Positions 1-46,152 of a stretch of 46,152 nucleotides of DNA are shown in pieces (position 1 is the first letter of the stretch; the number at the start of each line of letters is the position of its first letter). The notes beneath the pieces were generated by a model that had not been told where the DNA came from, did not search any database, and was given only the letters and a program-made list of their open reading frames with translations. Origin of the DNA: a virus; IMG/VR virus record IMGVR_UViG_3300039008_000027, positions 1 through 46,152 of that record; one strand, written 5' to 3'. A program made the position numbers and the translations under genes.

Positions 1-141
1 CAAGCCTCGTTTCCGGACGCGCAGACCCCCTTACATCTGAAGAAAGCTCCCTTCGAAGAGGAGTTGCCTTCTGCGGCAAACCCGATATTCTCTTCTCCGT
101 AGGGGGTCAAGCGGGTTGACCTCTCGAGGACGCCCGGCTTC
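1..141. repeat. Terminal overlap, copy A (identical to 46012..46152)
   Basis: Base-by-base comparison: caagcctcgtttccggacgcg...gacgcccggcttc occurs at both window ends. The repeat is cut off by the window edges. Confidence 0.95.
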
Positions 142-161
142 GCCGGGATATAGGAGTAGTT

Positions 162-1651: not shown

Positions 1652-1904
1652 TGAGGCCGCTAGAGTTAACGAGAACCAGAGTGGTTTTAAAGTTACTCTG
1701 ATTGGGTTGGCGCAAAATAGTTTTGACGGCACTTGGACTGTGCAGTATAGCCCTAACGGGGAAGACTGGCTGAATCATGAGGATATGACTCAGATTAGTG
1801 GTAATAAGACAGGGGATTTGTTCTTTGCAATCCGCTGGATTCGACTGAAAACTGAAGGTGCTTCGACAGGGGATGTAATGTTGCACGTGATTCAGGGGGC
1901 TTAG
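1620..1904 (+). CDS. Hypothetical protein upstream of the tail-fibre genes
   Basis: 94 aa with a G-rich RBS. Ends 1 nt before the next gene start. No recognisable motif. Confidence 0.55.
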   Translation: MELSVAGSGVSEAARVNENQSGFKVTLIGLAQNSFDGTWTVQYSPNGEDWLNHEDMTQISGNKTGDLFFAIRWIRLKTEGASTGDVMLHVIQGA

Positions 1905-1905
1905 T

Positions 1906-3276
1906 ATGAGTGTTGGTATTGGTACAGGTATTGGATTTCCCGATAAACCCGCGAATGGACAGCCAGGGACGGCAGCTCCACATATCACGGGAGTGGTGTT
2001 TGATAAGGCGGTGACGGGCGGCAATCAGTATAAGATGCAGTACAGTGATGGTACTGAATATACGTTTGTGGTGCCTGAACAGGATGTGGATTTTAGCCAT
2101 CTGGCCGAAGGAAGTATTCCTGCGTTTCGAAAAGTGCAAGGAATGCTGGTGGATAGCGGGGTTAAGGTTAATGGGCAGTCCATTGACTTTGGCGCAGATA
2201 CCCTGAGTTTTGGCTCGCACACGATGAAAGCCTTAGGGGAGAATGTTGGTTTCACCAATAAGGTAACTGGAGTTACGTACGTACCGCTTTGGCAGGAGTA
2301 TGGGTCTAATAAAAGTACTGGGTATATTCGAGCTATCGGGTCGAAGGAAAGTGTGACTCGACAGGCTGATACGAGTGAAGTTATTATTAATCCTGACTTT
2401 AAGACTCAGATTAATAATGATGAGATGGTGCATCAGATAAGAGTGTCTTTTAATGAGGCTACTCCTGGGGGCATAGAGGCTCTTATTTATGCTAATAATA
2501 GTCCGCTGGTGCATGTCGAAGCTAAGCAAGATATGCCGAGAGGACGGCAGACTATTTCCTTTTCGCCTGGGTTTGACTTGAAAAAAGATATTGAATATCG
2601 AGTTGTTATTCGGCGGTTGGACGGGCAAGATTTGAAGCTGAAAGGTAAGAGTGGATTTCCGTTCTTGCAAGTGGTTCGGAGTACTTGGGTTGATTTGGTG
2701 GTTGCTGACCAGAAGTGGGTAGAGCAACACTTTGTGAGTATTCAGGATTTTAATAAAGTGCAGACTGCTTTGACGGATGCGCAGGCTTTGTTGAAGCAGT
2801 TGCAGACAGCTCAGGGTGGTATGCAGGGCGACCAAGCTACGCAGAAGAATGAGCTGGGCGCTTTAGAGAAGAGGGTTGATGGTAAGTTGTGGACTATTCC
2901 TGACATTGTTGCGCAGTTGAAGAAACTGGGTTACAGACCAGCCGCGAATACAGGAGGCCCGAATACTCCTACGAGCCAGACTAGTGCGTATGCTCTTTTC
3001 CAAGCGGATGCTACTTCGCCTCCGACACTGCCGCCAGGATTGCCTGTGTACAGGGGCGGTAGAGTGCAGCTGCATAAAGACACTGATACCCCTGAATATG
3101 CGTTTATCTTCCTGCCTCCTGGGGAAGGGGGTAAGGTGGAGAAGGTTTCGGAAAGTGGCGGGCTTGCTAGTATCTGGGCTAAGGAGAGTAAGGTTTATGA
3201 TGGTAAGACCTATACGGTACTGAGGTCGCCTTACCCGTTTGTTGAGCATGATTTAACTTTATTCCTGCATGAGTAA
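1906..3276 (+). CDS. Tail-fibre-like structural protein
   Basis: 456 aa. Beta-rich N-terminal part, central coiled-coil stretch (QTALTDAQALLKQLQTAQ...ELGALEKRV), adjacent to the second fibre gene. Confidence 0.6.
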   Translation: MSVGIGTGIGFPDKPANGQPGTAAPHITGVVFDKAVTGGNQYKMQYSDGTEYTFVVPEQDVDFSHLAEGSIPAFRKVQGMLVDSGVKVNGQSIDFGADTLSFGSHTMKALGENVGFTNKVTGVTYVPLWQEYGSNKSTGYIRAIGSKESVTRQADTSEVIINPDFKTQINNDEMVHQIRVSFNEATPGGIEALIYANNSPLVHVEAKQDMPRGRQTISFSPGFDLKKDIEYRVVIRRLDGQDLKLKGKSGFPFLQVVRSTWVDLVVADQKWVEQHFVSIQDFNKVQTALTDAQALLKQLQTAQGGMQGDQATQKNELGALEKRVDGKLWTIPDIVAQLKKLGYRPAANTGGPNTPTSQTSAYALFQADATSPPTLPPGLPVYRGGRVQLHKDTDTPEYAFIFLPPGEGGKVEKVSESGGLASIWAKESKVYDGKTYTVLRSPYPFVEHDLTLFLHE

Positions 3277-3285
3277 GGATTTGAT

Positions 3286-5613
3286 ATGACTAAGATTGTA
3301 AATGGTACTCCGGTACTGGCACCGCTTACGCCAGGGATGGATACTCAGAATGTGTGGCCTACTCATAGTGCGGAGTATGGAAGAGGTGGTTTGAAGCTAG
3401 CTGCTAATGTTGCGGACAGAGATGCGATTCCGAGAGCTCGGCGTTATCAGAGTTTGGTGCTGGTTATAAAAGGAGATGATAAGTATCCTCATGCGTATTA
3501 CTGGAATGGTAAGAAAGAAGACGGCAGTGATGGTGCTTGGGTCGAAACTTATATCCCTGGTGGGTTTGTGCTGGCGGATACTGATGGTGGTTTGCCTACG
3601 CTGGTGCATACGTTGGTGTTTAGCGCTGACTTTGAAGTACAGTCTGCTGGTGACCAAGGGGGCGGTGCGTTAGTACAACTGGCTAAGAAGCAGGGAGGTT
3701 CGGGGAACGGACTGATTAGCGTTGGGACTTACGGGCAAGGACAGACGTTTAGTAAAGGGGATACTCTGGAATTGGAGTGGCCTTTGAAAGCGTGGCCAGA
3801 TGCTGACAAGGCTAAAGCTTTTCGAGTGAGCATGGATCATACGGCTTTTGAGCCTATGCACAAGCCTAGTTTCTTGGCATATCTGGGACGAGAAGAGGAA
3901 GTATCTGGTAAAGTAGCGCGGGGCGGGAAAGGTCATCGTGAGGGAACTCTTTGGTTTGATAGAATTGTCTGGCCAATGGGCGTATTCATGACCTCTAATA
4001 TGGCTGAAAAGAGCTATATGATTGAGGAAGCTGATACCCTTGACCCGAACGTGAGCGGAGGTACGGATTATCTGGTTGCGTTTCGGGCGAATATGAAAGG
4101 AACTGCTCCGAATGATGGATTTGTAAGAGCCTACTTGTATGATAAACAGGTAACTCCTTATTCTGAGAAAGGTTATTTGCTGGATAAAAACGGCGAACCT
4201 ATGGTATATGAACGGCACTATAAGCAGGGAGATAAGCTTGGTGTGCTTGAAGTTCTGGGTGTTGTGAATGCTAAAGGGCAGCGAGCATTTACGTGTCATG
4301 TGGTAGATAACTTTGTTGATGATATGGTGAATATCACTGACCCTTATGAAGGGGAGTCGGGACTGTTGATTCAGGCATTGACGAAAGATTCTATGACGGG
4401 CATGGGTTTGCTGCAATATGAGCAAGATACTCAACAGAGTTTGCACATTGGTAAGATGTATCTGGGCGTAAGCCGAATGGATATCTCTTGGTTAGTAGGG
4501 CAGGATACTCCTATGGAGTCTGGGGATGCTGCGCGGGGTATGACCCTGGCGGATGGGCTACATTTTTATAACCGGACAAAAATGAAAATGGGAGTGCAAA
4601 GTGGGCATCTTATTTTTCAGGATGATGGACGGGATATTACTGACTTTAGCTTTGGTAAGATTTTCTCAGCCGAAGAAACTCGAATGCTGCGAAGCAAGAA
4701 GATTAAAGTTTCACTGACGATTACGGATAAGGATAGTGGCTGGAACGTTGCGTTAATGAAATGGATTGGTAAACCTGATGAGTATAGTAAGGAGATTTTC
4801 AAGAGTCGTAATAATGGGAGTCCTGTCTTTGATACAAACTGGGTGAAAGTGCAGACTGGTTTTATTAGCGAAGATGTAGTTTCAGGCGACCACATGGAGG
4901 CGTTTGAGTGGGATGTTCCCGGAGATGCTAATAATTACGCAGTGATTATTTATCCGGTAGAAGCTCAGAATCCCCTGCTTTTGAAATTGGCTAAGTTTAC
5001 AGTAGACGTGAAGGAGCCTTTTGTAGGGTATGCCTTGAAAGCGCCCGTACTTTTGAACGAGAATCATCTGGTGTTTAGTGCGCAGTATAAAGAGTTTGTG
5101 CAGAACACGCAAGGTTATGCTGACTTGAGATATACGATTAATCAGAGCTGGCTTCCTATGCCTGTTGGTGAAGTTGGGAAAGGGGCTGCTGATATTTCAC
5201 TAGACCCTAGTGTGAATAAGATTCCTGGTAGTTCTGCGAAAGGAGGCGAGGGTGCTATATCTTTTCAGACGGACGGGAATGTGAGCGGGTCAGTAGATTT
5301 GCTGCTTTGGAATGAGCAGTCTAGTGATTCGACGGTTACGTTCAGACTGGTAAGAGTTGACCCAGATACAGGAGTGGTGAACGGAGATACCGGAGATATG
5401 ATTGGTGAGGGTGGGGTTAGTGTTCCTGCCGGAGCTAAGGGAGTTAACCATCGGTTTAATTTCCCAGAGACACCTGTTGAAGCAGGAGAGCGGTGGGCGT
5501 TAGTTGCAAAATCTGATAAAGCAGATGGTGCTTTTTTGCAGTGTGTTAGTGACGCGAAGCCTTTGGTTAAGATTGACCTAACCTTTAAAGAGCTGGTTAC
5601 AGCTACTCCGTAG
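3286..5613 (+). CDS. Tail fibre / receptor-binding protein
   Basis: 775 aa. N-terminal HSAEYGRGGLKLAANVADRDAIPRARRYQSLVLV resembles the conserved N-terminal module seen in many phage tail-fibre proteins. Long beta-rich C-terminus. Confidence 0.65.
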   Translation: MTKIVNGTPVLAPLTPGMDTQNVWPTHSAEYGRGGLKLAANVADRDAIPRARRYQSLVLVIKGDDKYPHAYYWNGKKEDGSDGAWVETYIPGGFVLADTDGGLPTLVHTLVFSADFEVQSAGDQGGGALVQLAKKQGGSGNGLISVGTYGQGQTFSKGDTLELEWPLKAWPDADKAKAFRVSMDHTAFEPMHKPSFLAYLGREEEVSGKVARGGKGHREGTLWFDRIVWPMGVFMTSNMAEKSYMIEEADTLDPNVSGGTDYLVAFRANMKGTAPNDGFVRAYLYDKQVTPYSEKGYLLDKNGEPMVYERHYKQGDKLGVLEVLGVVNAKGQRAFTCHVVDNFVDDMVNITDPYEGESGLLIQALTKDSMTGMGLLQYEQDTQQSLHIGKMYLGVSRMDISWLVGQDTPMESGDAARGMTLADGLHFYNRTKMKMGVQSGHLIFQDDGRDITDFSFGKIFSAEETRMLRSKKIKVSLTITDKDSGWNVALMKWIGKPDEYSKEIFKSRNNGSPVFDTNWVKVQTGFISEDVVSGDHMEAFEWDVPGDANNYAVIIYPVEAQNPLLLKLAKFTVDVKEPFVGYALKAPVLLNENHLVFSAQYKEFVQNTQGYADLRYTINQSWLPMPVGEVGKGAADISLDPSVNKIPGSSAKGGEGAISFQTDGNVSGSVDLLLWNEQSSDSTVTFRLVRVDPDTGVVNGDTGDMIGEGGVSVPAGAKGVNHRFNFPETPVEAGERWALVAKSDKADGAFLQCVSDAKPLVKIDLTFKELVTATP

Positions 5614-6000: not shown

Positions 6001-6035
6001 ATTATATAATTGAGTAATGGGAATAATTATATAAT
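6001..6035 (+). promoter_or_regulatory. Two copies of palindromic ATTATATAAT, candidate late-operon promoter(s)
   Basis: Perfect 10-mers at 6001-6010 and 6026-6035, each containing TATAAT. They sit 23-57 nt upstream of the small terminase start. No good -35 at 16-18 nt spacing. Confidence 0.45.
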
Positions 6036-6057
6036 GTTCATTCTTGGAGGTTTTTTT

Positions 6058-6573
6058 ATGAGCAAGCTGGAAGAGATTTATAAGGGAGAGGATAACGATA
6101 CTACCATGCCTGTGGTTAAGAACATGACTAAGAGTGCTTGGATAGTAATGGAAGCTATGATGCTGAACCCGAAGATTACGCAAAGGGAACTGGCTAAGTT
6201 AGCTGGGGTTAGCAGACCTTATGTGTGTCGGATTCAGAATAGCCCTGTCTTTAAACAGACGCTGAGAGAAGCTCGGATTGCAGCCGTACAAGATAGACTG
6301 GTTAATATGACTGATAAAGGCATTACCAGAGCGGAGCAGATTATTGAAGATAGTGAGAGTTCTGATAAGGATGCGTTAGCTGCGCTGAAGCTGGGCTTGA
6401 CAGCTATGGGCATGGGAGCTAATCAGGGAACTCCGGCGGGTGCAGGAGATACTAATCTGACGGTGAATCTGGGTGTTACGGCAGATATGGTAAACGAAGC
6501 GCGTGAGCGTAGTCAGAAGAAAAAGCTGATTGAAGGCACTTGCACGGAGGTCAGCGATGAGCAATCGGAGTAG
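6058..6573 (+). CDS. Small terminase subunit (HTH-containing)
   Basis: GGAGG lies 8 nt upstream of ATG 6058 (track ORF starts at 6010). Helix-turn-helix ITQRELAKLAGVSRPYVCRIQ. Position is upstream of the large terminase. Confidence 0.6.
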   Translation: MSKLEEIYKGEDNDTTMPVVKNMTKSAWIVMEAMMLNPKITQRELAKLAGVSRPYVCRIQNSPVFKQTLREARIAAVQDRLVNMTDKGITRAEQIIEDSESSDKDALAALKLGLTAMGMGANQGTPAGAGDTNLTVNLGVTADMVNEARERSQKKKLIEGTCTEVSDEQSE

Positions 6574-20386: not shown

Positions 20387-23300
20387 ATGGCTCTTAATGA
20401 TAGCTATTTACCGGAGGCTTCCAATGCGGAGCTTCCACAATATTTAAGGGATGTGTTAGCGGGTGCTCAAGGAGCACCTGTTCCCACTCCTGGGGCTGCT
20501 CCAATGCCAGTGCCTCAGCCTGCACTCGACCCGTTCTTAGCAGCACTCCTTCCAACGGAAGCTGCTATTGAGATTGACCCAGAATCAGGTCTCTTGATGC
20601 CTTCGGTAAAACGCGGTGCTGCACAGACATTTGCCTCCCTTGCCAACTTGGTCGGGGCGGAGGAAACTGCTGCCGAAGCAATGCAATATGCTGCGCAATT
20701 CCCGCGACAAATCCAGGACATTCAAGACGTACAGTCTCTAGCAGACCTTGGAACTTACGCCGTTGAATCGGCTGCGGAAAATGTAGCAAACATTCTCGCC
20801 ATTGGCGCGGGTGCTCTTGTTGGTTCAGTAGCGGGTGCTCCAATGGTTGTCGGCGGGGGCTTAGTAAACTTCGCTCTGCAAGCTGGTGAGTCTAAGATGT
20901 CAGTCGAGCAAGCAGGCGGCGACCCTAACTTAGTTAACGTAGGTATCCCAGCTGCTCTTAATACAGCCATCGATACTTTCTCTATTGCTAAGATTGCAAA
21001 GAAAGCTGGTGTGTTGAAGGAAGTTGTTGAGCATCTGGACGAAGCCGCGGAAATCTCAGGACTGGGCGCGCGTATTAAACGTGGGGTTCGTACTGGTACG
21101 GAAGCTTTCGCCCTCGAAGGTTCTACGGAAGTTATCCAGAACTACAACAACTTAGTAGCCGCGAAATTGTCCACTGACAAAACTATCCGCGAAGCACTAA
21201 CTCTTCAAGGCGAGGATGTTGATGACCTGATTAACGCATTCGCAGCAGGCGGTCTGGGAGCAGCTACTACAGCTGGCCCTCTGGCTACAGTTTTCACTGG
21301 TAAAAAGGTAAGTGAATCTGCAGACCAAGGTTCTAACGCAGCGCCTGTACAGCCTACGGAAGCCGACCCTAACCCACTCACGGGTGAACCTACTCAAGCG
21401 CAGCCAACACCTGCTCCGCCGGAAGGAACTCCTGATATTGACGATACCGACTTCACGCAGGAGTTCGGGGATGCTAACGAAGACCCCGTGGAACTAGACC
21501 CTGATAATGAAGTCGAGCAGCTTAAAGCTGAGATTGAACGTCGTAGAGTTTACTTGGAGGCTGGTCAAACAGAAGCCCCGTTCCGAGCACAAGCTCGTCG
21601 TGACCCTGCTTATCTTTCAAGAAAAGACCAGTTGAGCACAGGTGATGACCCGACATTCCGGCAGCCTATGCCTTCTCGTTTCTGGGAAGATAAAACTTAC
21701 ACAGCCCTCGGCGAAGAGAGTACTGTATTCAGCTCTATTGTTGCGGATACTCCAGAGGTTACGACTACAGCAAACTATCGGAAACGTTTCACGGAAACTG
21801 AACAGTATGCTATTGCCGATTACATCGAGATTCTGCGTACAAGCTTCATGCCAGATGCTCCAATTATTATCGGGCATCAAGGAGACTTCTCAGGCTCGCG
21901 CTCCTCTTCTACTATGGCGTCAATGTCGCCCGTGGAAATCGAGGGACGTAACGCCTACATTATGGAAGTTAACCCTGCAGGTATGGCGCGTATAGCACAA
22001 GCCGTAGGCGTAGAACGTAACACTCTCTTGTACGAAACAGTTGCCCATGAGTTTGGTCACGCACTTTCTGCTGAGCAGTTTAAGCGTGAAAACAACCAGA
22101 CACAATCTGCAATCTACGGAGAATATCAGCAGTGGGTAGACACTACCTCGAAGAAAACTATGCGGGAATTCATCCTAGATAGATTCCCTCCAGTATCGGG
22201 TAAGTACTATCTGGATAACATTCCGCAAGAACTTCTGGAAGTTCCATTCATGGAAGCCGCCCGTGAAATCGGATGGACAGGTTCGAAACTCCGCTATCAC
22301 CTTTCTTTCGAGGAATATGCTGCGGATAACATGGCTAAGTTTGTCGCCCGTGATGCTAAGCTGGCGAATCAGGTTTCCAAGGAAACTAAAGGTTACTGGA
22401 CTAAAGCTATTGATACGTTCCTGAAAATATTCAGAACTATCTCTAAGTTCTTACCACAACCTAAGTTCAAAGCGTGGGTTGAAAAAGTTCGGATGGACAA
22501 GGCACTTGAACTACTCCTTGATGTTCCGCTTGCTTCCCAGCAGATTGTGGATGACTTAGGCGAGTTTATTGATTTGGACATTAATAAATTGCGGGACAAT
22601 CTAAATTATAAAATGTCCGATGGTGTCAGGATGAATGAAACCGCAGGGACAATTCTGCAGGACGCCCAGCAACTTGAGGCACTGCGACGGAACTATCGTG
22701 TATCAACTGGCTTTACTCGTAAGGTAGCCGGACGATTCCTCACGCCCGCGCAAATTGCAGAACGTTACAACATCCCTCAAGCGAAAGCTTACATGGAACG
22801 AGTATACGACTACTACCAGACTAAGATGCGTGGTATCTCGAAAGCTGACTCCATTGCTAAAACCTGGATGGATTTACCGGAAGCTCAGTCTGACGCATTC
22901 GGCAAGTTCCTTTACGCAATCTCCGAGAAGTCTGATGAACTGCAACGTCGTCTAACTCCCGAAGAAATGGCAGTCTTTCGTGAAGAGTTTGGCATCACAG
23001 ATGAAACGGCAACTCTCTACGGAGAAATGGATACATCTTTCCAAGAGATTCTATCTCGTTTAGAGACTTCTATTCTGAAAGATATCGCTCGTTCGTACAC
23101 AAATAACCCTGGGCGTTTTGTTGAGGAATACCAGGCCGCGCAAACTATGGGCGACAAAACTCTGGTAATTACTTCCTACGGTGTCGAGGATTATGCAGGT
23201 TTCCTAAACGAGCTTCAGAAAGCAGAGAAAAGTTTCGACGCACTGCGTAACAAGAACTATTTCCCTCGTATGCGGTTTGGAGATTTCACTATTACAGTGA

Positions 23301-25438
23301 AGCGTAAATACCTGAAAGGAGAGAAAGCCCGTGAAACAACAGCTGAATTCCTAACCTTCGAAAGTAAGAAGGAACGGGATAAGATGCTTGAACAGTATTT
23401 GAAGGATTACTCAGATGATATTCAAAACGGTACAGTGGATGTTATTGGCTCTAAGCTTGACGACACTACTCGTAGTCTTTATGGTATGCCTCAACTGGTT
23501 GTGGATAGAATTGCTAATTCACTCCGTAGTGCGGAAGGAACAGGGCTTACTGCTGACCAAGAGAGAGCAATCGCGGATATCGCTCTTGACCTAAGCCCAG
23601 GCAAACGCTACTTACGTCATATGCAGCACCGGAAGAATACAGCAGGATTCTCCACTGAAGCAATGCGTACATACGCAGCCTATATGAGTAACGCTTCAAA
23701 CCATCTCGCGCGTGTTGAGCATACGGCGGATATGGCTGCGTCACTCCGCGACTTGCGACAAGCTCAGAAAGGAATGGCTGGTGACGTGACTGACCTCGCT
23801 GAACTAGACTCGTATTACACAGACCATTTCAAGTATCTGCTTAACCCAGAGAACGATTGGACAAAACTTCGGGCGTTCGGTTTCCTTTGGTATCTCGGAG
23901 CTAACCCTAAGTCTGCACTTGTCAACACAACGCAGTTGCCGATGGTTACATACCCATTCCTAGCTTCTCGTTACGGCGACACCCGAACAGTCTCGTCCCT
24001 AGCAAAAGCTTTGAAAGACGTAACCGCGCACTTTACTCTGAAGAAAAAGTATTCTGAAGAGGAGCAGCGTTTGCTTGACCGTGGTGTTCAGGAAGGTTGG
24101 ATTGACGAGAGTATGGCATCTGACCTTGCAGGTATCTCTGAAGGTACAGCTTTGCAACGTATCCTGCCTACGAACAAAGCGCACAAAGTTATGAATAACA
24201 TTAACTACTATGGAGGTTTCTTATTCTCGATTGCTGAAAAATACAATCGTCAGGTTACCGCATTAGCTGCGTTCCGTTTGCACATGAAGGACACCGGAGA
24301 TTTCGAGGCCTCGCACAGAGCTGCGAAAGATGCGGTACATAAATCTCAGTTTGAATACGCGAAGTACAATCGACCTGAGTTTATGCGTGGTAAGAAGTCA
24401 GCCTTCTTCCTGTTCTATAACTATACGCAGCAGTTCATGTACATGGCTTTTGCTGGTGGGGGTAAAAGAGAGGACAAGCAAACAGCTATTCGTATGTGGG
24501 GTATGCTCCTTCTACTAGCTGGTGTACAAGGTTTGCCTATGGCAGAGTACGTACTATCAACACTGGATTTGTTCGGTACGCAAGCGAAGAGATTCTTTGG
24601 TATGCAGAACCCAGAAGTTAACGTGCGCCGTGACTTACGCGAGTTGTTTGATGACCTTGGAATGAACCCAGACCTAATGATGCACGGGACTGGTCGTTAC
24701 CTTGGCGCCGGCCCTCTGAAACTACTTGAGTTATTTGGAGCGCCTGTTCCGAACCTTGACATTACAGGCTCGCTTTCTATGGGTGAACCGCTTCCAGGCT
24801 TCCGTGTGAATGACCTGAAAGGCGACCCTTCTGAAATGGCTGGTCAGCTTCTGCTTAACGGACTCGGCCCGATACCTAACATTGCACTAGGGATGTGGGA
24901 TGCGGTGTCCAGTACAGACCCTGACAAGTGGAAGAACTTTGAGAAGGCGTTACCAATCGCCCTCAAGAATGTCTCGAAAGCGTCTCGATATGCAACCCGC
25001 GAAATGGAAACCTCGCGAGGTGGTGCTGAGTTCCTTCCGTACGATGGGAACAACCCATACGAGATGGGTGAGATAATCGGTCAAGCAATGGGCTTTACGT
25101 CCACCCGTCTCGCCCAGAAACGTGAGATGTACGGTGAGCAAATACAATCATCAATGTATTGGTCAGCCCGCCGCTCGTTGCTTCTGGAACGGTATGCGTA
25201 CGCGACTAAGACAAGGGACAAGGAAGCCCGCGTTCAGGCGCTTCAGGCAATCCGCGATTTCAACAAGTCGCTAACGGAACCTGCACTCAAGCCTTACAAA
25301 ATCTCAGGGCCGAGTATGGCGCGTTCACTCAAGGTGAAGATGAGAGTTCTCCAAAGGAGGGAAAGAGGTATTCCAACAGCAGACCGTGACCGTCTAATCT
25401 ACAGTGATATTGAGAAACTTTACATGGGAGAAGAATAG
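20387..25438 (+). CDS. Giant internal/ejection protein with zincin HEXXH motif and PLxRFG-like motif
   Basis: 1683 aa, the last gene of the structural arm. HEFGH at aa 554-558 (nt 22046-22060), YFPRMRFGDF (nt 23264-23281), and hydrophobic segments in the C-terminal third (LWYLGANPKSALV, MWGMLLLLAGVQGLP). Confidence 0.75.
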   Translation: MALNDSYLPEASNAELPQYLRDVLAGAQGAPVPTPGAAPMPVPQPALDPFLAALLPTEAAIEIDPESGLLMPSVKRGAAQTFASLANLVGAEETAAEAMQYAAQFPRQIQDIQDVQSLADLGTYAVESAAENVANILAIGAGALVGSVAGAPMVVGGGLVNFALQAGESKMSVEQAGGDPNLVNVGIPAALNTAIDTFSIAKIAKKAGVLKEVVEHLDEAAEISGLGARIKRGVRTGTEAFALEGSTEVIQNYNNLVAAKLSTDKTIREALTLQGEDVDDLINAFAAGGLGAATTAGPLATVFTGKKVSESADQGSNAAPVQPTEADPNPLTGEPTQAQPTPAPPEGTPDIDDTDFTQEFGDANEDPVELDPDNEVEQLKAEIERRRVYLEAGQTEAPFRAQARRDPAYLSRKDQLSTGDDPTFRQPMPSRFWEDKTYTALGEESTVFSSIVADTPEVTTTANYRKRFTETEQYAIADYIEILRTSFMPDAPIIIGHQGDFSGSRSSSTMASMSPVEIEGRNAYIMEVNPAGMARIAQAVGVERNTLLYETVAHEFGHALSAEQFKRENNQTQSAIYGEYQQWVDTTSKKTMREFILDRFPPVSGKYYLDNIPQELLEVPFMEAAREIGWTGSKLRYHLSFEEYAADNMAKFVARDAKLANQVSKETKGYWTKAIDTFLKIFRTISKFLPQPKFKAWVEKVRMDKALELLLDVPLASQQIVDDLGEFIDLDINKLRDNLNYKMSDGVRMNETAGTILQDAQQLEALRRNYRVSTGFTRKVAGRFLTPAQIAERYNIPQAKAYMERVYDYYQTKMRGISKADSIAKTWMDLPEAQSDAFGKFLYAISEKSDELQRRLTPEEMAVFREEFGITDETATLYGEMDTSFQEILSRLETSILKDIARSYTNNPGRFVEEYQAAQTMGDKTLVITSYGVEDYAGFLNELQKAEKSFDALRNKNYFPRMRFGDFTITVKRKYLKGEKARETTAEFLTFESKKERDKMLEQYLKDYSDDIQNGTVDVIGSKLDDTTRSLYGMPQLVVDRIANSLRSAEGTGLTADQERAIADIALDLSPGKRYLRHMQHRKNTAGFSTEAMRTYAAYMSNASNHLARVEHTADMAASLRDLRQAQKGMAGDVTDLAELDSYYTDHFKYLLNPENDWTKLRAFGFLWYLGANPKSALVNTTQLPMVTYPFLASRYGDTRTVSSLAKALKDVTAHFTLKKKYSEEEQRLLDRGVQEGWIDESMASDLAGISEGTALQRILPTNKAHKVMNNINYYGGFLFSIAEKYNRQVTALAAFRLHMKDTGDFEASHRAAKDAVHKSQFEYAKYNRPEFMRGKKSAFFLFYNYTQQFMYMAFAGGGKREDKQTAIRMWGMLLLLAGVQGLPMAEYVLSTLDLFGTQAKRFFGMQNPEVNVRRDLRELFDDLGMNPDLMMHGTGRYLGAGPLKLLELFGAPVPNLDITGSLSMGEPLPGFRVNDLKGDPSEMAGQLLLNGLGPIPNIALGMWDAVSSTDPDKWKNFEKALPIALKNVSKASRYATREMETSRGGAEFLPYDGNNPYEMGEIIGQAMGFTSTRLAQKREMYGEQIQSSMYWSARRSLLLERYAYATKTRDKEARVQALQAIRDFNKSLTEPALKPYKISGPSMARSLKVKMRVLQRRERGIPTADRDRLIYSDIEKLYMGEE

Positions 25439-25444
25439 AGAAAA

Positions 25445-25470
25445 GGGGGCGAAAGCCCCCTCTTTATTTT
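25445..25470. terminator. Bidirectional intrinsic terminator between the convergent arms
   Basis: gggggc-gaaa-gccccc hairpin flanked by aaaa (left) and tctttatttt (right). Lies between the stops at 25438 (+) and 25464 (-). Confidence 0.75.
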
Positions 25471-26750
25471 GCAAGTGAATTTATCTTTTCTAAATCCTCG
25501 TCACTGGCTGTATGTTCAGCACCGTTCAACAATCTCTCCGTCGGTCGTATCACATTCCCGTTAGCGCGTACAACATTGTCAAAGAAACCTGCGGCAACAC
25601 CAGCATCTATCGCCCGCGAAATTGCGTCATACCCCATGCGAGTTGACAGCTTGTAAATAAGCTCACTACGCAACATGCCTTTCGGATATCCAGCAACAAC
25701 AAGCTTAACAATCTGAAGACTTCCCGCGTCTTTATCATCCGTGATTGTATTAAATACTTTCAGCATGTTTTGTTCTGAATAACTCAGTAAAGCTAATGCG
25801 GTCTGTAAATGCGCTCGCGTAATAATCTTGCTATCACTCTCCGAGGCGCTTAGACACATCGCAACTTTGTGCATATGAGTTTGCTTACGTGCTGCGTAAC
25901 CCGCTAATACGTCAGACCTTAGATGTTCGTCAGGAGTAGTATTATGTTTCTTATACCATTCCTCGCCGAAAGCTTTAGCGTCATCGTCCAGCTTAAACTC
26001 CCCACTAATCTGACTGATACGAATCAAGTCCTCGACCAAACGTTTCTTTCTAACCGCATGGTTTTTTGGCACGTAATCCGCAGGGTACGCAACCAATTTC
26101 TGTTTATTTTCTGCATACACAAAGATACCCCTCGAGGTAAAGCCACCGCCAATCGCATAACGAGGCATACTTTGTGCAACCCAACTCGGTGTGGTACATC
26201 CTATCAGGTTAAGCCAAGCACCTTCTGCTTTCTGCTCCCCGCCACCGACCGTCCTTCTAACTATCGGCTTGTCCTTCGCATCCCAGATATCAACTATCGT
26301 ATCAATCATCTCAGAGTTATTGAAGTCCAAGAATGTACCCAACTCAGAAGCTTCCACAGTTAAACAACTCTGCTTAATCTTCTTACCACTTACCTTAACT
26401 GTTTCTTCCACCTCCATAAAATTACTGAAGAGTGCCTGCCATGTACAACTGCTCGGCCCGAAGTTTACTCCAGGAACTTGCCGAAGCAAGTCCGTTCCCA
26501 CACCACTCGTCGTAGACTTTGATACAATCCCAGGAGGTGCTACAAAGATAATAAAGCAGTTAGGCTTCCAGCGGAAGTAACCCATATCTATGTAACACTT
26601 CCCTCGCAACGCACCCGCGATAATACTAATCGCAGTCCACATATGATACTCACGAGGCGCTTCCATATGTTCAGTGTATTTGACGTATCCCTGAAGAAAG
26701 TTACCATAGTTCCTTTCTCCTTTCATCAAATCCTTAACATCGAACTTCAT
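25464..26750 (-). CDS. DUF3987-like P-loop ATPase, candidate replicative helicase
   Basis: 428 aa. Deviant Walker A FVAPPGIVSKSTT, Walker-B-like LTVEASELG, LNLIGCTTP and GGGFTSRGIF blocks as remembered for DUF3987-type phage/plasmid helicases. Confidence 0.55.
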   Translation of the reverse strand: MKFDVKDLMKGERNYGNFLQGYVKYTEHMEAPREYHMWTAISIIAGALRGKCYIDMGYFRWKPNCFIIFVAPPGIVSKSTTSGVGTDLLRQVPGVNFGPSSCTWQALFSNFMEVEETVKVSGKKIKQSCLTVEASELGTFLDFNNSEMIDTIVDIWDAKDKPIVRRTVGGGEQKAEGAWLNLIGCTTPSWVAQSMPRYAIGGGFTSRGIFVYAENKQKLVAYPADYVPKNHAVRKKRLVEDLIRISQISGEFKLDDDAKAFGEEWYKKHNTTPDEHLRSDVLAGYAARKQTHMHKVAMCLSASESDSKIITRAHLQTALALLSYSEQNMLKVFNTITDDKDAGSLQIVKLVVAGYPKGMLRSELIYKLSTRMGYDAISRAIDAGVAAGFFDNVVRANGNVIRPTERLLNGAEHTASDEDLEKINSLAK

Positions 26751-33652: not shown

Positions 33653-33710
33653 TCCAAACTCTCCAATCAATCACATTAAATAATGTGGTACGTTGTAAAT
33701 GATATAATGT

Positions 33711-38912: not shown

Positions 38913-39002
38913 AACAATTCCTCGTTTGCCCCCTCACTCATTCGCACCAGTGAAGGATAAGTCTGTGTGGTGCGCCACATTATAAAATGTCACTTTACAC
39001 GA

Positions 39003-39031
39003 ATTATATAATATATTCCCTACACTCGCAA
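39003..39031 (-). promoter_or_regulatory. Sigma70-like promoter (TTGCGA-N17-TATAAT) on the minus strand
   Basis: -35 is the reverse complement of 39026-39031 and -10 of 39003-39008, inside a perfect ATTATATAAT (39003-39012). Lies about 90 nt upstream of ATG 38912. Confidence 0.6.
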
Positions 39032-41548: not shown

Positions 41549-41551
41549 CTC

Positions 41552-41794
41552 CTACTCCCCGGCGAAGCCGGCCGCCCCAGCGGTCAAGCTAGCAGCTTTC
41601 ACAGCTCTCAGCTCAGGTTTATTTTCCACACAGGTCGGACAAATGTGGGAGCTCGGAAAACCGTCAACCTCACTTACCCACCACCCGCTACTTTCAAGCC
41701 TGGCATTTGCGGCTTCTTCATCGAGCGCCCAAATCTTCTCAGCATCCCCGCCACAATTCTGGTCACACACAACTAAAAACAGCTTCTTAAACAT
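41552..41794 (-). CDS. Hypothetical Cys-rich small protein
   Basis: 80 aa from ATG 41794 (GGGAG RBS; track start 41833). CDQNCGG ... HICPTC suggests a zinc ribbon. Confidence 0.55.
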   Translation of the reverse strand: MFKKLFLVVCDQNCGGDAEKIWALDEEAANARLESSGWWVSEVDGFPSSHICPTCVENKPELRAVKAASLTAGAAGFAGE

Positions 41795-41853: not shown

Positions 41854-42546
41854 TTATACTCTATCAGCAGCCTCATCATTATTCAACTCTGGGTTAAAAC
41901 GTCCCAGAATATAATCAGGCCTTCTTTGGTCTGGTTGCGGGCAGGCTGCGGTAATACGCCAACCCTTCCCTAACTGAACTTGCAACTCATCCGAGCAACA
42001 ATCTTCAAGCAGCATAATATCATTATACGTACTCAGTGCCTGGCCTGGCATATGGACTTCACACCGCTGGTTATATTGGTCGCCTTCCTTCTGCACAACC
42101 ATCGCGCCCTTATCGCCCACCGTCTGAAAAGCACTGCTTGCATTCAGCGTCTTTTTAACAACCTGCTCAACTCTCAGCCCTTTGTCAACTTCCAGCATCT
42201 TCAGGTACACATCATCCGTAACCCAAACCGAGTCTCCTTCGCCTTCCAGCAATGGCCGACTCTCCCACTTCTTGTTTTCACTTTCCTTTGTCTCGCCTTC
42301 CGGTCTTTCCACCAGCTCGGCCAAATCAAAATCCGGCAAGAACTCCGCTAGCTTCTCAACTTTCTTGCGCTCCCGCAAATACTCATCATAGTGCCCATAA
42401 CTACCCGTACGCAGTTCCAGCTTAAACAATCTTATAACTAAATCTTCCACACTAACTCCTTCCCCCGCCATTCGGCGAAGTTTTTCTCCAAATAATCGGT
42501 TGTCCGCAGCAATCACTTTCCTCAAAAGTAACCCTGCCCCAACCAT
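41854..42546 (-). CDS. Hypothetical protein
   Basis: 230 aa from 42546, or 205 aa from ATG 42471. Neither start has a strong RBS. No motif recognised. Confidence 0.6.
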   Translation of the reverse strand: MVGAGLLLRKVIAADNRLFGEKLRRMAGEGVSVEDLVIRLFKLELRTGSYGHYDEYLRERKKVEKLAEFLPDFDLAELVERPEGETKESENKKWESRPLLEGEGDSVWVTDDVYLKMLEVDKGLRVEQVVKKTLNASSAFQTVGDKGAMVVQKEGDQYNQRCEVHMPGQALSTYNDIMLLEDCCSDELQVQLGKGWRITAACPQPDQRRPDYILGRFNPELNNDEAADRV

Positions 42547-43017: not shown

Positions 43018-43027
43018 ATTATATAAT
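43018..43027 (-). promoter_or_regulatory. ATTATATAAT motif, candidate -10 element for the gene starting at 42992
   Basis: Perfect palindromic 10-mer 26 nt upstream of ATG 42992, in the 52-nt gap after the first early gene. Confidence 0.4.
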
Positions 43028-43044
43028 TGAAAACTCAACGAATG

Positions 43045-43512
43045 TTATAATTCGTCAACCTCGTCCAAATCGAAATCCCCGAGAACATCCTTCATGAAGT
43101 CTCCCGTAAGTTCGGGTTCTAAATCATTCTTCGGAGAACCCTCAACCTCCACTGGAGCTTTATCGAAGTCATCCAGCCCCGCCAATGAAGCTTCTGCGGC
43201 TTCAATCATTGGATTACGCTCCGTAGCCGCGTTAACAAAGCGTAGCGTCTTACCTTCCAGCTTAATTTTCGTCTCCTTATGGACACGAAACAATTCCTGA
43301 TAACCAATGGGGTCATCAGTTCTTTCCGCAGGAGTCATCTTCGCAATCTTACGTTCCAGTGCCTTACCGAAGCCGTAACACTGAAGACGGAAGTTGCTCG
43401 CTTCCCGCTTATACTTAAACTCGATTTCGTGAATTTCCGGCACTGAGCCGAGTTTACGGTACAGGCGGAAGAATACGCCCGAATAAGTTTCTATGTTTTT
43501 AGGTGTTGGCAT
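43045..43512 (-). CDS. First gene of the leftward early operon, hypothetical (acidic tail)
   Basis: 155 aa from ATG 43512 (AAGGAG 5 nt upstream; track start 43542). C-terminus is GDFMKDVLGDFDLDEVDEL. Confidence 0.65.
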   Translation of the reverse strand: MPTPKNIETYSGVFFRLYRKLGSVPEIHEIEFKYKREASNFRLQCYGFGKALERKIAKMTPAERTDDPIGYQELFRVHKETKIKLEGKTLRFVNAATERNPMIEAAEASLAGLDDFDKAPVEVEGSPKNDLEPELTGDFMKDVLGDFDLDEVDEL

Positions 43513-43557
43513 ATATGCTCCTTCATCAGAATAAATATTCACTTCTATTACGATTTG

Positions 43558-43586
43558 ATTGTATCCATCTCCTAGCGAGTGGGCAA
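43558..43586 (-). promoter_or_regulatory. Sigma70-like early promoter (TTGCCC-N17-TACAAT), minus strand
   Basis: -35 is the reverse complement of 43581-43586 and -10 of 43558-43563, with exact 17-nt spacing. Lies about 45 nt upstream of ATG 43512, next to the iteron arm. Confidence 0.55.
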
Positions 43587-43600
43587 ATTAAATTATCTCT

Positions 43601-43829
43601 CGGAAACGGGTAAATAACCATTTACCCCGATACTACCCCGATATTACCCCGATTGCTAGCAAATCGATGAGGGGGTGATACCCATGTATAGCTAAGTGTA
43701 TGTTTTATATATATTTTTTTTTAATACATACCTACTCATACGCCCATGAGTCACCCCTACCTGCTCGCCCTAGCAATCGGGGTAATATCGGGGTTACAAC
43801 GGGGATAATAAATATTTGCCCCGTTTACC
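43601..43829. promoter_or_regulatory. Dyad-symmetric iteron element with an AT-rich core (candidate origin/operator)
   Basis: TACCCCGAT x3 at 43623/43634/43645 (11-bp period) is mirrored by ATCGGGGTA-like x3 at 43776/43787/43798. A 25-nt perfect inverted repeat is present. The nested pairs GGGGTGA/TCACCCC and GTATGT/ACATAC share the same centre at 43714/43715. Confidence 0.8.
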
Positions 43830-43957
43830 TTATGGCGAAAAGGTGGCCTATATAATGACCGCGCGCGTATGCGCGATAGCACAATATTTATTCAACTCGC
43901 AAGCCTTTTCTTTTAACCCGAAGAAAAAACTTTTTTCATATCCGAAGCTAAAAGCGC

Positions 43958-43986
43958 TTGCTCCCTCGCTTGGTTAAAAGTATTAT
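43958..43986 (+). promoter_or_regulatory. Sigma70-like promoter candidate (TTGCTC-N17-TATTAT), plus strand
   Basis: 17-nt spacing. Lies about 85 nt upstream of ATG 44070. Confidence 0.4.
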
Positions 43987-44069
43987 TGTTTATGTAGGGC
44001 AATGAAGCCCAAGAGTTTTTATTTTATTCACCAGCGGCAAAGCCGCATCCCAGAAAAGAGAGATTTATT

Positions 44070-44603
44070 ATGGCTCGTAAACAATTTAATTTTGTAGTAT
44101 CCGGCACAGCAGTAGTTGTTCAACGTCTGACTTATGCAGACCCAGACGCTCCAGCGGTAGTTGCTGAAGAAAAGACTTTCGCAGTAGCCGACGTTCCAGC
44201 TGAGCTTACCAATGGCGAAGGTGTTGTTTCACTGGCAGCATACGGCCTATCCCAGGTTCTTCAAGACCGCGTGTCAAGCTGTGACGCTGACGAAAAACTT
44301 GAAGCTATGGAGAAGGTGTTCGGCAACCTGGTAGACGGCAAGTGGAAAGAAGCTCGTCAGTCAACTGGTGCAACGAAGAAAGCTGCTATCGACCCATTCT
44401 TCGCGAAAGGTTTCTCTCTGTTCCTGCAAGGTCAGGGCAAAGATGTTACCGCAGAGCAGGCTACTATCATCCTGCAAGGTCTGGATGCAGACCAGCGCAA
44501 AGCACTGCGTACCAATGACGACATTAAGGCGTTCATTGAGAAAGCTAAAGAAGAAGCAACCGCTTCTGTTGCAGACCTTGACCTATCTTCACTGCTAGGC
44601 TAA
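44070..44603 (+). CDS. Hypothetical protein, paralogue 1 of a diverged pair
   Basis: 177 aa. Shares SLAAYGLS..LQDR, FFA.GF, GKDVT.EQAT.ILQG, QRKALR and the terminal LDL.SLLG with the 45297..45863 product. Confidence 0.8.
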   Translation: MARKQFNFVVSGTAVVVQRLTYADPDAPAVVAEEKTFAVADVPAELTNGEGVVSLAAYGLSQVLQDRVSSCDADEKLEAMEKVFGNLVDGKWKEARQSTGATKKAAIDPFFAKGFSLFLQGQGKDVTAEQATIILQGLDADQRKALRTNDDIKAFIEKAKEEATASVADLDLSSLLG

Positions 44604-44817: not shown

Positions 44818-44827
44818 ATTATATAAT
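44818..44827 (+). promoter_or_regulatory. ATTATATAAT motif, candidate -10 element for the 69-aa gene
   Basis: Perfect 10-mer 91 nt upstream of ATG 44918. A second TATAAT sits at 44847-44852. Confidence 0.4.
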
Positions 44828-44917
44828 GTGATTCGGCTCGCAATTTTATAATGTGGTATAGACAAGCTGGCTAAATGTGCTAAGGTTGGAGGGTGTTAAA
44901 CAAACGAGGACAAAAAC

Positions 44918-45296: not shown

Positions 45297-45863
45297 ATGA
45301 AAACTAAAAACGTATTTACCCTAACAAGCGATTCAGTAGAAATGAAAGTTATGGACGTGACTAACCCTGATGAGCACAAGGAGCTTGCCAAGCACGAGTT
45401 TGACGTGACCGCCATCCCCGTGATTTTGGAGGACGGTGAACAAGCAAGCAAGAGTCTGGCGGCTTATGGCCTATCAAGACTGATGCAAGACCGCTGCTCG
45501 GACTTTACCGATAGCAAGCTAGGGGATGTTTGCGCGACTGCGGCCGAAGTGGCGAAGGCGAGACTGGAAGCGTATCAGGCGGTGTTTGACACGTTAGCGG
45601 GCGGTCAATTCAGGGCAAGAAGGGCGACTTCGAAAGCGGGCGCAAGTGTTGACGCCTTCTTCGCGAGTGGCTTTGCGGCCTTCTGTAAGGCGAATGGGAA
45701 GGACGTTACGCCCGAACAAGCTACGGTTATCTTGCAGGGTATGTCGGGAGAGCAGCGCAAGGCACTACGCGCGGATGACCGGATTAAGCCATTCATCGCG
45801 GAGGCGAGGGAAGCGGCAAGGACTGCGGTAGACGGGTTAGACTTGGAGTCCTTGCTTGGTTAA
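45297..45863 (+). CDS. Hypothetical protein, paralogue 2 of the pair
   Basis: 188 aa with an AAGGA RBS. Homologous to the 44070..44603 product, with visibly more GC-rich codon usage. Confidence 0.8.
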   Translation: MKTKNVFTLTSDSVEMKVMDVTNPDEHKELAKHEFDVTAIPVILEDGEQASKSLAAYGLSRLMQDRCSDFTDSKLGDVCATAAEVAKARLEAYQAVFDTLAGGQFRARRATSKAGASVDAFFASGFAAFCKANGKDVTPEQATVILQGMSGEQRKALRADDRIKPFIAEAREAARTAVDGLDLESLLG

Positions 45864-46011: not shown

Positions 46012-46152
46012 CAAGCCTCGTTTCCGGACGCGCAGACCCCCTTACATCTGAAGAAAGCTCCCTTCGAAGAGGAGTTGCCTTCTGCGGCAAACCCGATATT
46101 CTCTTCTCCGTAGGGGGTCAAGCGGGTTGACCTCTCGAGGACGCCCGGCTTC
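46012..46152. repeat. Terminal overlap, copy B (identical to 1..141)
   Basis: Same 141-nt string as the window start. Confidence 0.95.

Follow-up and report, generated by a model that had tools for sequence, protein, structure and literature searches.

Replication origins are, to our knowledge, known for very few non-classical tailed phages and for none with a minichromosome maintenance (MCM)-like DUF3987 helicase. The closest known architecture for the element described here is the origin of the staphylococcal pathogenicity islands (SaPIs), followed by the origins of iteron plasmids. In the SaPI origin, 6-12 short iterons are divided equally between the two sides of a central AT-rich region, with at least two per side in opposite directions, and these are bound by the C-terminal winged helix of a self-loading, MCM-like Rep helicase (PMC9371898). 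The present element lies in the IMG/VR virus record IMGVR_UViG_3300039008_000027, of which positions 1 to 46,152 have been analysed as a whole and are called the window below. It is about 220 bp long and consists of mirror-symmetric short repeats around the most easily melted spot of the ~46-kb phage genome. We propose, with a confidence somewhat short of even, that it is a phage replication origin, in which dyad-symmetric iterons and a DNA unwinding element are read by a winged-helix protein of the phage.

The likeness to the SaPI origin concerns both the DNA and the proteins. In the window an A/T core is enclosed by two sets of 3+1 units that are inverted relative to one another, and opposed iterons flanking an AT-rich centre have been found in the window and in all 12 relatives compared; the window phage also has an MCM-like helicase with a fast-evolving C-terminal winged helix, for which iteron binding is a candidate function. 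The SaPI origin is immediately downstream of rep, whereas the gene adjacent to the present element encodes a small protein, here called gpL1, and the position relative to the helicase gene differs from that in SaPIs because this gene is 17 kb away. SaPI repeats have 5-6 nt, whereas the units here have 9 nt and an 11-bp period and are accompanied by extra G/C boxes.

Iteron-plasmid origins of the pPS10, pSC101, P1, F and R6K type are served by winged-helix Rep initiators. They share with the window phased direct repeats beside an AT-rich unwinding element, and an inverted repeat of the same motif by the promoter of the adjacent initiator gene, the place of which is taken here by the small, basic and winged-helix-like gpL1. 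In the plasmids this inverted repeat serves autoregulation. Plasmid origins are asymmetric with one array, whereas the window element is dyad-symmetric, and Rep has two winged-helix domains and is twice the size of gpL1; profile and Foldseek searches gave no match between gpL1 and the Rep families. Initiator sites placed as a dyad around an A/T-rich tract are also found in archaeal oriC, where inverted origin recognition boxes flank the unwinding element, and, among eukaryotic viruses, in the core origins of simian virus 40 (SV40) and papillomaviruses. At these origins two hexamers, of MCM or of a superfamily 3 helicase, load head to head. Their initiators (Orc1/Cdc6, large T antigen and E1), however, have no sequence relationship to the window.

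Among phages, Cluster O mycobacteriophages have a 39-nt A/T tract and sets of repeats between divergent operons, which have been suggested as a possible origin (PMC4351075), and Corndog, a member of this cluster, encodes a DUF3987 helicase (PMC4889955). The window resembles them in the AT-rich tract with repeats in a divergent gap and, for at least one phage (Corndog), in the DUF3987 helicase; it differs in that the Cluster O repeats, as described, are on one side of the tract, and no sequence relationship exists. In the phage-inducible chromosomal island-like element (PLE) satellite, non-coding repeats between divergent operons mark an origin that was validated by coverage and genetics (PMC7145576).

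When the window sequence was re-read and searched for repeats and motifs, all features listed in the preliminary description of this DNA were found at the coordinates given there. The parts of the element and of its right flank, with the analysis that supports each, are listed below; a feature without a natural direction is called unstranded.

43604-43612, unstranded: outer flipped unit AAACGGGTA (inverted-repeat search).
43608-43627, unstranded: local palindrome GGGTAAAT-N4-ATTTACCC, formed by the outer unit and the first direct unit (inverted repeat), about 22 bp from the -35 hexamer of the leftward promoter PL.
43623-43653, plus strand: left arm with three TACCCCGAT units at an 11-bp period (direct-repeat, motif and period analyses).
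43653-43662, unstranded: inner boundary of the left arm, a 10-bp palindrome TTGCTAGCAA with CTAG at 43656-43659 (sequence).
43671-43678, unstranded: left inner G box GGGGGTGA, in which GGGGTGA at 43672-43678 is the dyad partner of TCACCCC (sequence).
43691-43702, plus strand: block GCTAAGTGTATG abutting the core (comparison with relatives).
43703-43726, unstranded: A/T-only core of 24 nt with T9 at 43714-43722, a candidate DNA unwinding element (stability and A/T-run scans).
43751-43757, unstranded: right inner C box TCACCCC (sequence).
43770-43806, minus strand: right arm, in which CTAG at 43770-43773 is followed by ATCGGGGTA, ATCGGGGTT and AACGGGGAT at an 11-bp period, inverted relative to the left arm (repeat searches).
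43798-43826, unstranded: outer flipped unit GCCCCGTTT (43818-43826), which with the third right-arm unit makes the palindrome AACGGGGATAATA-N2-TATTTGCCCCGTT (inverted repeat).
43849-43875, plus strand: TATATAAT-GACCGCGCGCGTATGCGCG, a conserved box right of the element (comparison with relatives).

The unit TACCCCGAT occurs without mismatch at 43623-43631, 43634-43642 and 43645-43653 on the plus strand and at 43776-43784 on the minus strand, and is accompanied by a 1-mismatch copy at 43787-43795 and by CCCCGTT at 43798-43804 (minus strand) and 43819-43825 (plus strand). All four exact copies are within 160 bp and none is present elsewhere in the genome, while about 0.35 copies are expected by chance in 46 kb on both strands. 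Each arm has three units phased at 11 bp and one flipped outer unit. The arms, 43608-43659 and 43770-43821, have 52 nt each and are separated by a spacer of 110 nt; they are complementary at 42 of the 52 positions, and perfectly so in their innermost 25 nt. In a scan of the whole window no inverted repeat was longer and no dyad ranked higher; the dyad score is 27, compared with 8.6 +/- 1.0 (maximum 12) when the intergenic region was mononucleotide-shuffled 60 times.

The inner pairs GGGGTGA/TCACCCC and GTATGT (43698-43703)/ACATAC (43726-43731) have a common symmetry centre at 43714.5, and the 24-nt run of pure A/T, the longest in the genome (the next has 16 nt), is centred on the dyad with an offset of 0.0. 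The segment 43700-43729 is the least stable duplex of the genome in windows of 20, 30 and 40 bp, at about 4 standard deviations from the mean, and the T9 run at the very centre is non-palindromic. Two traits looked for in an origin have accordingly been found at this locus, namely short repeats at near-helical spacing clustered in one place and an adjoining A/T-rich segment of low stability. No DnaA box was seen in the element on reading the sequence.

The relatives used for comparison are metagenome-assembly loci (numbered with L) that were found with the right-hand phrog_28928 protein, to which their proteins are 44-90% identical. IMG/VR scans with the two flanking proteins as single queries gave no relatives, and a scan with an alignment as query gave a single distant locus (L002) that lacks a divergent gap and is uninformative. 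All 12 loci with an intact gap share one plan, at the same position between the same conserved flanks. From left to right, this plan consists of a leftward promoter of the form TTGCnn-17-TAATAT, a flipped outer unit with an arm of about three units, an inner boundary, a box with a G or C run, the A/T core, a second box, the inverted arm and conserved rightward signals. The repeat symmetry, for which a conservation check had been proposed, is kept in every one of them, with dyad scores of 18-38 compared with null maxima of 11-14. The period is 11 bp in 10 of the 12 loci and 7 bp in two Vibrio-type phages. In all 12 the core has 17-35 nt of pure A/T at no more than 11 nt from the dyad centre and is a T run or an A run depending on the phage; in 11 of the 12 loci tabulated it is flanked by G or C runs of 4 nt or more.

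Several of the smaller parts are conserved in a subset of the loci. CTAG is invariant at both inner arm boundaries in the window, L003, L004 and L006, and L017 has CTAG at the right and CCAG at the left boundary. A G run, A/T spacer and C run matching the left outer palindrome are found also in L003, L004, L006 and L017. The 7-mer GCTAAGT adjoins the core in L003, L004, L017 and the more distant Microcystis phage Mel-JY34, though it is non-unique in these genomes and its meaning is uncertain; the full 12-mer GCTAAGTGTATG is common only to the window, L003 and L017. The TATATAAT-GACCGCGCGCGTATGCGCG box is kept in L003, L004, L006 and L017 and, judged by reading, also in L001, L007 and L012.

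The sequence of the unit differs by phage (CCCCGAT, CCCCAAG, CCCCCACAC, CCCCTCATCC, CCCCGCATT, CCCTGATGG and TTTTTTA have been found), and in any one phage there is resemblance among the units of an arm and between the two arms. In L003, the closest relative, with a neighbouring protein 90% identical to that of the window, the two outer units have changed in both arms and the innermost unit has been kept. Since units and arms change in concert, chance, an array for host factors and a recent insertion are ruled out, and a reader is expected that is encoded by the phage and whose specificity drifts along with its sites. The pattern of substitutions indicates a co-evolving, phage-encoded binding protein rather than a host factor or RNA. 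The core is kept in composition and not in sequence, as expected of an unwinding element. With this conserved architecture, with co-evolving repeats and with a core that keeps its A/T composition while its sequence changes, the relatives have considerably strengthened the interpretation as a replication origin, which appears best supported among those considered. An array for the host factors IHF, Fis or DnaA was also considered and was rejected on the change of the repeats between close relatives and on the reading that showed no DnaA box.

A wider group of phages was found with the capsid protein, to which those of Mel-JY34, the Caulobacter phage Kuura and the Pseudomonas phage 119X are 49%, 29.8% and 27.7% identical. 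No dyad in the Mel-JY34 genome ranks above that at 44129-44291, whose arms of 28 nt enclose a 107-nt spacer with a T9 core. The divergent gap of this phage is elsewhere, at 42095-42493; the dyad is ~1.7 kb inside the early strand and is followed directly by a TTGACA-17-TATGGT promoter and a gpL1 homologue (BLASTP E = 5e-5). This layout shows that the element travels with gpL1 and not with the strand switch, and it argues against a function tied to divergent transcription; the linkage of element, promoter and gpL1 gene fits either an origin-initiator cassette or an autoregulated gene. The repeat region of phage 119X is larger: CTATCCCC units and ATAGGGG units occupy opposite sides, and CAAGGTAGG forms outer inverted arrays. 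In 119X (43180-43365 plus 1-170) and in the related PaP2, we noted a plan of two layers, with outer CAAGGTAGG units at a 10-bp period and inner units around TTATATAAGTGTATAG. Kuura has four GGGCAGT units, G boxes, an A12 core (43141-43152) and inverted ACTGCCC units; in our reading this is a similarly built element, though it is absent from the top dyads of Kuura in the scan. Neither a comparable dyad nor a terminal repeat was found in the record of the Polaromonas phage Tiera, and literature on the Vibrio phage, on Mel-JY34, on the ends of PaP2 and 119X and on the origin of N4 yielded nothing on the element.

It had been stated that no protein in the window is an obvious iteron binder. This needs to be revised, since two winged-helix candidates exist, gpL1, which had already been named there as a first candidate for binding, and the C-terminal domain of the helicase.

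43045-43512, minus strand: gpL1, the first leftward gene, 155 aa from a conserved ATG, a candidate iteron binder or initiator (structure model and homologues).
25464-26750, minus strand: DUF3987/MCM-like AAA+ helicase, 428 aa, with a canonical C-terminal winged helix at residues 340-404, the second candidate iteron binder (structure model and Foldseek).

A gpL1 homologue is the first or second leftward gene beside the element in 11 of 11 loci examined. The second position is seen in L009, where the gpL1 gene (1725-2183, minus strand) is behind the gene of a shorter paralogue (2187-2456, minus strand), an 89-aa protein that aligns with the N-terminal domain of gpL1 and has no acidic tail. The gpL1 proteins of the window and L003 are 57% identical, where the neighbouring protein is 90% identical. 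An all-against-all HMMER search gave a family of 7 proteins among 1.8 billion, and the family was not found in Pfam or PHROGs; a comparison of gpL1 with gp57 of 119X detected no relationship. The AlphaFold2 model of gpL1 is confident for residues 10-100, with the order alpha1-beta1-alpha2-alpha3-beta2-beta3, and this predicted order of elements is that of a winged helix. Its weak Foldseek matches are winged-helix repressors of the ArsR, HlyU and BlaI types (E >= 0.23). The domain is basic in all homologues (pI 8.7-9.8), and the tail is strongly acidic in all but one of the full-length homologues.

DUF3987 proteins have been classed in helicase superfamily 6 and proposed as MCM-like replicative helicases of phages with a winged helix-turn-helix at the C terminus (Kazlauskas et al., PMC4889955), and a PriCT-DUF3987 protein has been demonstrated to be a helicase (PMC11724360). 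The model of the window protein has a predicted local distance difference test (pLDDT) score of 91 and a predicted template modelling (pTM) score of 0.89, and Foldseek matched it with MCM subunits at a probability of 1.0 and E ~1e-8; a profile search against PDB sequences found no similarity to any solved structure. More than 2,800 homologues have been found at E <= 1e-20. In four genomes, the winged helix is 60, 51, 43 and 22% identical to that of the window where the helicase core is 79, 78, 68 and 57% identical. For the recognition helix, identity is 82% and 76% in the pair of phages with the innermost unit of the window, CCCCGATT-CTAG, and 41% in the pair that lacks it. These values are consistent with co-variation between the winged helix and the iterons, with n = 4 and confounded by phylogeny.

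From the anatomy of the element and its statistical significance, its conservation, the concerted evolution of its arms, the extreme meltability of its centre and the presence and fold class of both candidate proteins, we infer binding, melting, helicase loading and initiation in the following steps. A winged-helix protein of the phage would bind all four helically phased units in each arm, three of them direct and the fourth flipped, and the protein-coated arms would face one another over the ~110-bp spacer. Melting would take place at the centre of the spacer, in the 24-nt A/T-only tract between the G/C boxes, and the MCM-like DUF3987 protein would then be loaded as the replicative helicase for bidirectional synthesis. 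The binder may be gpL1, as a small initiator that would autoregulate its gene through the palindrome beside its own promoter, or the C-terminal winged helix of the helicase itself, as in SaPI Rep, or both. Nothing found contradicts established principles, and the anatomy is unusually clean. Functions as an origin, as a genome end and as an operator need not be mutually exclusive.

A more far-reaching and rather doubtful extension is that this family of tailed phages loads the DUF3987 helicase as two opposed hexamers with no loader of the ORC or DnaA type, guided by the hypervariable winged helix of the helicase and by gpL1 as an adaptor. Fast co-evolution of iterons and reader would then yield phage-specific origins, and in relatives with terminal repeats the start of the repeat at the same element would couple initiation to end formation. 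If the element is an origin, it offers a compact, sequence-defined substrate of ~220 bp with a pair of small candidate readers, at least seven repeat specificities as a natural series for studying the loading of a bacterial-virus relative of MCM, and a means of predicting origins in a large group of uncultured phage genomes of ~41-48 kb. If it marks a genome end instead, the packaging signal of the same phage group is defined, and either outcome is useful for annotating and engineering these phages.

Several points weigh against the interpretation as an origin. Foldseek searches of gpL1 against PDB and BFVD gave nothing significant (best PDB E = 0.23), and the linkage of its gene to the element would fit an autoregulatory operator equally well. 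The 17-kb distance of the helicase gene, unlike the position of rep in SaPIs, belongs here as well. The cumulative GC skew has its minimum at 43-44 kb, which would speak for an origin, but this switch is fully confounded with the switch of the coding strand. The arms of the Vibrio-type phages are (TTTTTTA)3, that is, 7-bp A-tract repeats instead of 11-bp C-tract units. The repeat region of 119X straddles the ends of its record, and the separate record of PaP2 breaks within ~7 bp of the same place, at the dyad centre between a C run and a G run. In Kuura, the 606-bp terminal repeat starts at 43208, between the core and the right arm and 56 nt from A12, and the ends of this repeat have been set with PhageTerm (PMC9959647).

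The last two points lead to the first rival explanation, a genome-end or packaging element, the arms of which would be bound by a small terminase or an accessory protein, with a cut near the centre or at the inner edge of one arm. In the concatemer, a direct terminal repeat would then have its boundary at the element, which could also serve as an origin-like primer site for duplication of the repeat. A similarly built element holds the boundary in Kuura, and the records of PaP2 and 119X, which are separate submissions, break at nearly the same position. Short-repeat clusters on both sides of a cut region are likewise known from P1 pac and from the T7 concatemer junction, with the difference that the repeats of P1 pac are Dam-methylated palindromic hexamers. 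The large terminase of the window has its distant relatives mainly among N4-like podoviruses, and short terminal repeats are a feature of DNA packaging in N4-like phages. For the PaP2-like phage Shea, terminal redundancy of the ends and persistence as an episome have been described (PMC13348215), and PaP2-like phages in general have been reported as temperate or pseudolysogenic and episomal (PMC3652863, PMC13348215). The boundary in Kuura, the breaks in PaP2 and 119X, the ends of Shea and the N4-like terminase make a genome-end role a serious rival or an additional function, even though we regard it as unlikely.

The following evidence speaks against a genome end, without being decisive. Kuura, PaP2 and 119X are only 27-30% identical in the major capsid protein, and their elements are alike in architecture and not in sequence; the starts of the PaP2 and 119X records have perhaps simply been made co-linear. 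Among the closer relatives, the contigs of L005, L007 and L008 stop inside the element, which would suit a genome end, but at three different positions: L005 in the innermost left unit, and L007 and L008 in a core run of A21-25, 4 nt apart. Because these positions differ and because L004, L006, L009 and the window read through, the breaks look like assembly failures at a homopolymer or an inverted repeat. The contig of L013 ends close to the element, in a palindrome that lies 125 bp beyond the right arm, and its break is probably of the same kind.

Nor does the element lie in or beside the small terminase gene, terS, as a terminase recognition site would. In the window this gene (6010-6573) is 8.3 kb downstream of the element; the distance is 1-2 kb in Kuura, 119X and Mel-JY34. 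Another position in the window is a candidate for an end. Position 1 of the Vibrio phage record MF497422.1 is homologous to window ~128-147, at the edge of the 141-nt terminal overlap of the window, and the hairpin copy at this place lies 2.4 kb to the right of the element. Two independent assemblies breaking here may reflect a physical genome end; if this coincidence does mark one, the element is not the terminus in the family of the window.

The second rival is a purely regulatory role, in which the element would be a large operator or enhancer through which gpL1 or another early protein acts, by repression or activation, on PL and on the rightward promoters, perhaps with the arms looped together across the bendable A/T core. 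The promoters concerned are these.

43558-43586, minus strand: leftward sigma-70-like promoter PL, with -35 TTGCCC at 43586-43581, a 17-bp spacer and -10 TACAAT at 43563-43558 (promoter scan), upstream of the 155-aa gene.
43958-43986, plus strand: rightward sigma-70-like promoter PR, TTGCTC-17-TATTAT (read from the sequence), upstream of a phrog_28928 gene.

The PR signal, with TTGCnC, an invariant 17-bp spacer and TAATAT/TATTAT, is kept in L001, L003, L004, L006, L007 and L017; it was not reported by the promoter scan because its -35 matches at only 3 of 6 positions. PL and PR share an extended -35 region, TTGCYC-N-CTCGCTWGG (43571-43586 and 43958-43973; 16 nt, 81% complementary), which suggests a common promoter class or a site for a shared regulator. 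A candidate leftward promoter reading into the element (TTGCGA at 43903-43898) was dropped, its -10 being unconvincing.

A regulatory role would suit the left arm, which is 18-75 bp upstream of the PL -35, and the outermost units, which form local palindromes beside PL (ending 22 bp upstream of the -35) and beside the TATATAAT box. It would also suit the linkage of element, promoter and gpL1 gene in Mel-JY34, gpL1 being the first early gene. Against it, the arms are upstream of the promoters and overlap neither the -35 nor the -10 of PL or PR, PR being 130 bp from the right arm, and an operator would need no A/T-only centre that is conserved in composition and is the least stable duplex of the genome. 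The placement between divergent early promoters, stressed in the preliminary description, is true of the window and the 12 close relatives and is not conserved further: the element of Mel-JY34 and the similarly built ones of 119X and Kuura are inside the early-gene strand, 1-2 kb from the strand switch, and not between divergent promoters. The gap itself has 527 bp, as given there, if the leftward open reading frame (ORF) starts at GTG 43542, and 557 bp with the conserved ATG at 43512.

The proposal of a master operator has also become weaker, since the TACCCCGAT motif is present at one locus only and at no other promoter. From its distribution, a different motif, the 10-bp palindrome ATTATATAAT, looks like the distributed transcription signal of the genome. 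It has 5 copies compared with ~0.05-0.1 expected, upstream of genes on either strand (6001-6035, 33675-33708, 38979-39012, 43018-43027 and 44818-44852); four of these five intergenic sites hold a pair, with a near-copy at a distance of 24-25 bp and usually a following G, and the fifth holds a single copy. The paired motif has been found also in L003, L004, L014 and L017, and it flanks the dyad element in L014 and, with a near-copy on one side, in L009. It probably represents a separate class of promoter or operator. For the element as a whole, we judge an exclusively regulatory role to be improbable, at a level similar to that of a genome end.

A very small likelihood is left for selection of the arms for base pairing, as a long hairpin of RNA or single-stranded DNA or as a cruciform. 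The region folds far better than its shuffles (-53.1 kcal/mol with DNA parameters, z = -9.6), and arm complementarity is kept across relatives with different sequences, but such a z value is trivial for any inverted repeat. Mismatches between the arms of the 12 phages show no bias toward wobble (G-T) pairs on either strand (32 and 29, compared with 92 others, near the random ratio of ~1:1:4), and the 11-bp repeats inside the arms are not needed for a stem. PL and PR point away from the element, a promoter transcribing it was not found, and no Rfam match was found in it; the 110-nt loop generally disfavours cruciform extrusion. Since wobble bias and an Rfam match are absent, the arms are periodic and the promoters point outward, we have treated the arms as protein-binding sites.

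A mobile or recombination element, whether an insertion like a miniature inverted-repeat transposable element, an attP with arm-type integrase sites or a protelomerase target, is scarcely credible in spite of terminal inverted repeats ~220 bp apart and of the likeness to lambda attP, which also has ~240 bp with inverted sets of arm sites, because the element has the same position and conserved flanks in all 12 relatives, its centre (the T9 run) is non-palindromic, no relative was found in 185,579 representative bacterial and archaeal genomes, and the ORFs of 90 aa or more at 1-12.8 and 20.4-46 kb gave no integrase, transposase or protelomerase in a scan that left out the ORFs at 12.8-20.4 kb (presumably head and tail genes) and in which several proteins had no match.

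The window is a circularly closed assembly of a tailed phage of ~46,011 bp, bases 1-141 being equal to 46012-46152. No close DNA relative was found among GenBank phages, the sole distant match being the Vibrio phage vB_VspS_VS-ABTNL-3. The absence of relatives from the representative bacterial and archaeal genomes gives no sign of a prophage or plasmid state, and the only match in a plasmid collection was the capsid, at 25% identity. Genes on the plus strand extend from 44070 across the contig junction to 25438 and encode two phrog_28928 paralogues, two large uncharacterized proteins, terS, terL, the portal, the capsid and a 1683-aa protein. Those on the minus strand, from 43542 down to 25464, are small early genes and genes for a UvrD-like helicase, an exonuclease, Sak4, a dUTPase, a ParB-methylase, a polynucleotide kinase, a split family-A DNA polymerase and the DUF3987 protein. 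The interval 43543-44069, which holds the dyad element, is the single divergent gap of the window.

To the right of the element, the conserved blocks in 43849-43936 are TATATAAT-GACCGCGCGCGTATGCGCG, CTCGCAAG and AAGAAAAAACTTTTTT. The first of these is inverted in L010 (2780-2815) and thus behaves as a module independent of orientation. It may be a protein site or a small transcription unit, or, by analogy with TGTATA|ATGG at the right boundary of the terminal repeat of Kuura, it may be a cleavage site.

The two phrog_28928 paralogues (44070-44603 and 45297-45863, plus strand; 177 and 188 aa) are 45% identical, and both end in an acidic D-L-D-L-x-S-L-L-G tail; the pair is kept in most relatives with downstream sequence and is not evident in L009. 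Between them and terS there are two adjacent large ORFs (1906-3276 and 3286-5613, plus strand; 456 and 775 aa), which match only the uncharacterized phrog_22875 and phrog_10818 (a 1496-aa profile) and for which neither a Pfam domain nor a PDB sequence match was found. The structural module ends with the 1683-aa protein (20387-25438, plus strand), which over its C-terminal 700 residues matches PHROGs of giant virion proteins, DarB-like antirestriction proteins among them, and which may be ejected. Each strand has one copy of the GC-rich hairpin CCCGGCTTCGCCGGG with a ribosome-binding site after it, at window 128-156 and 41549-41577.

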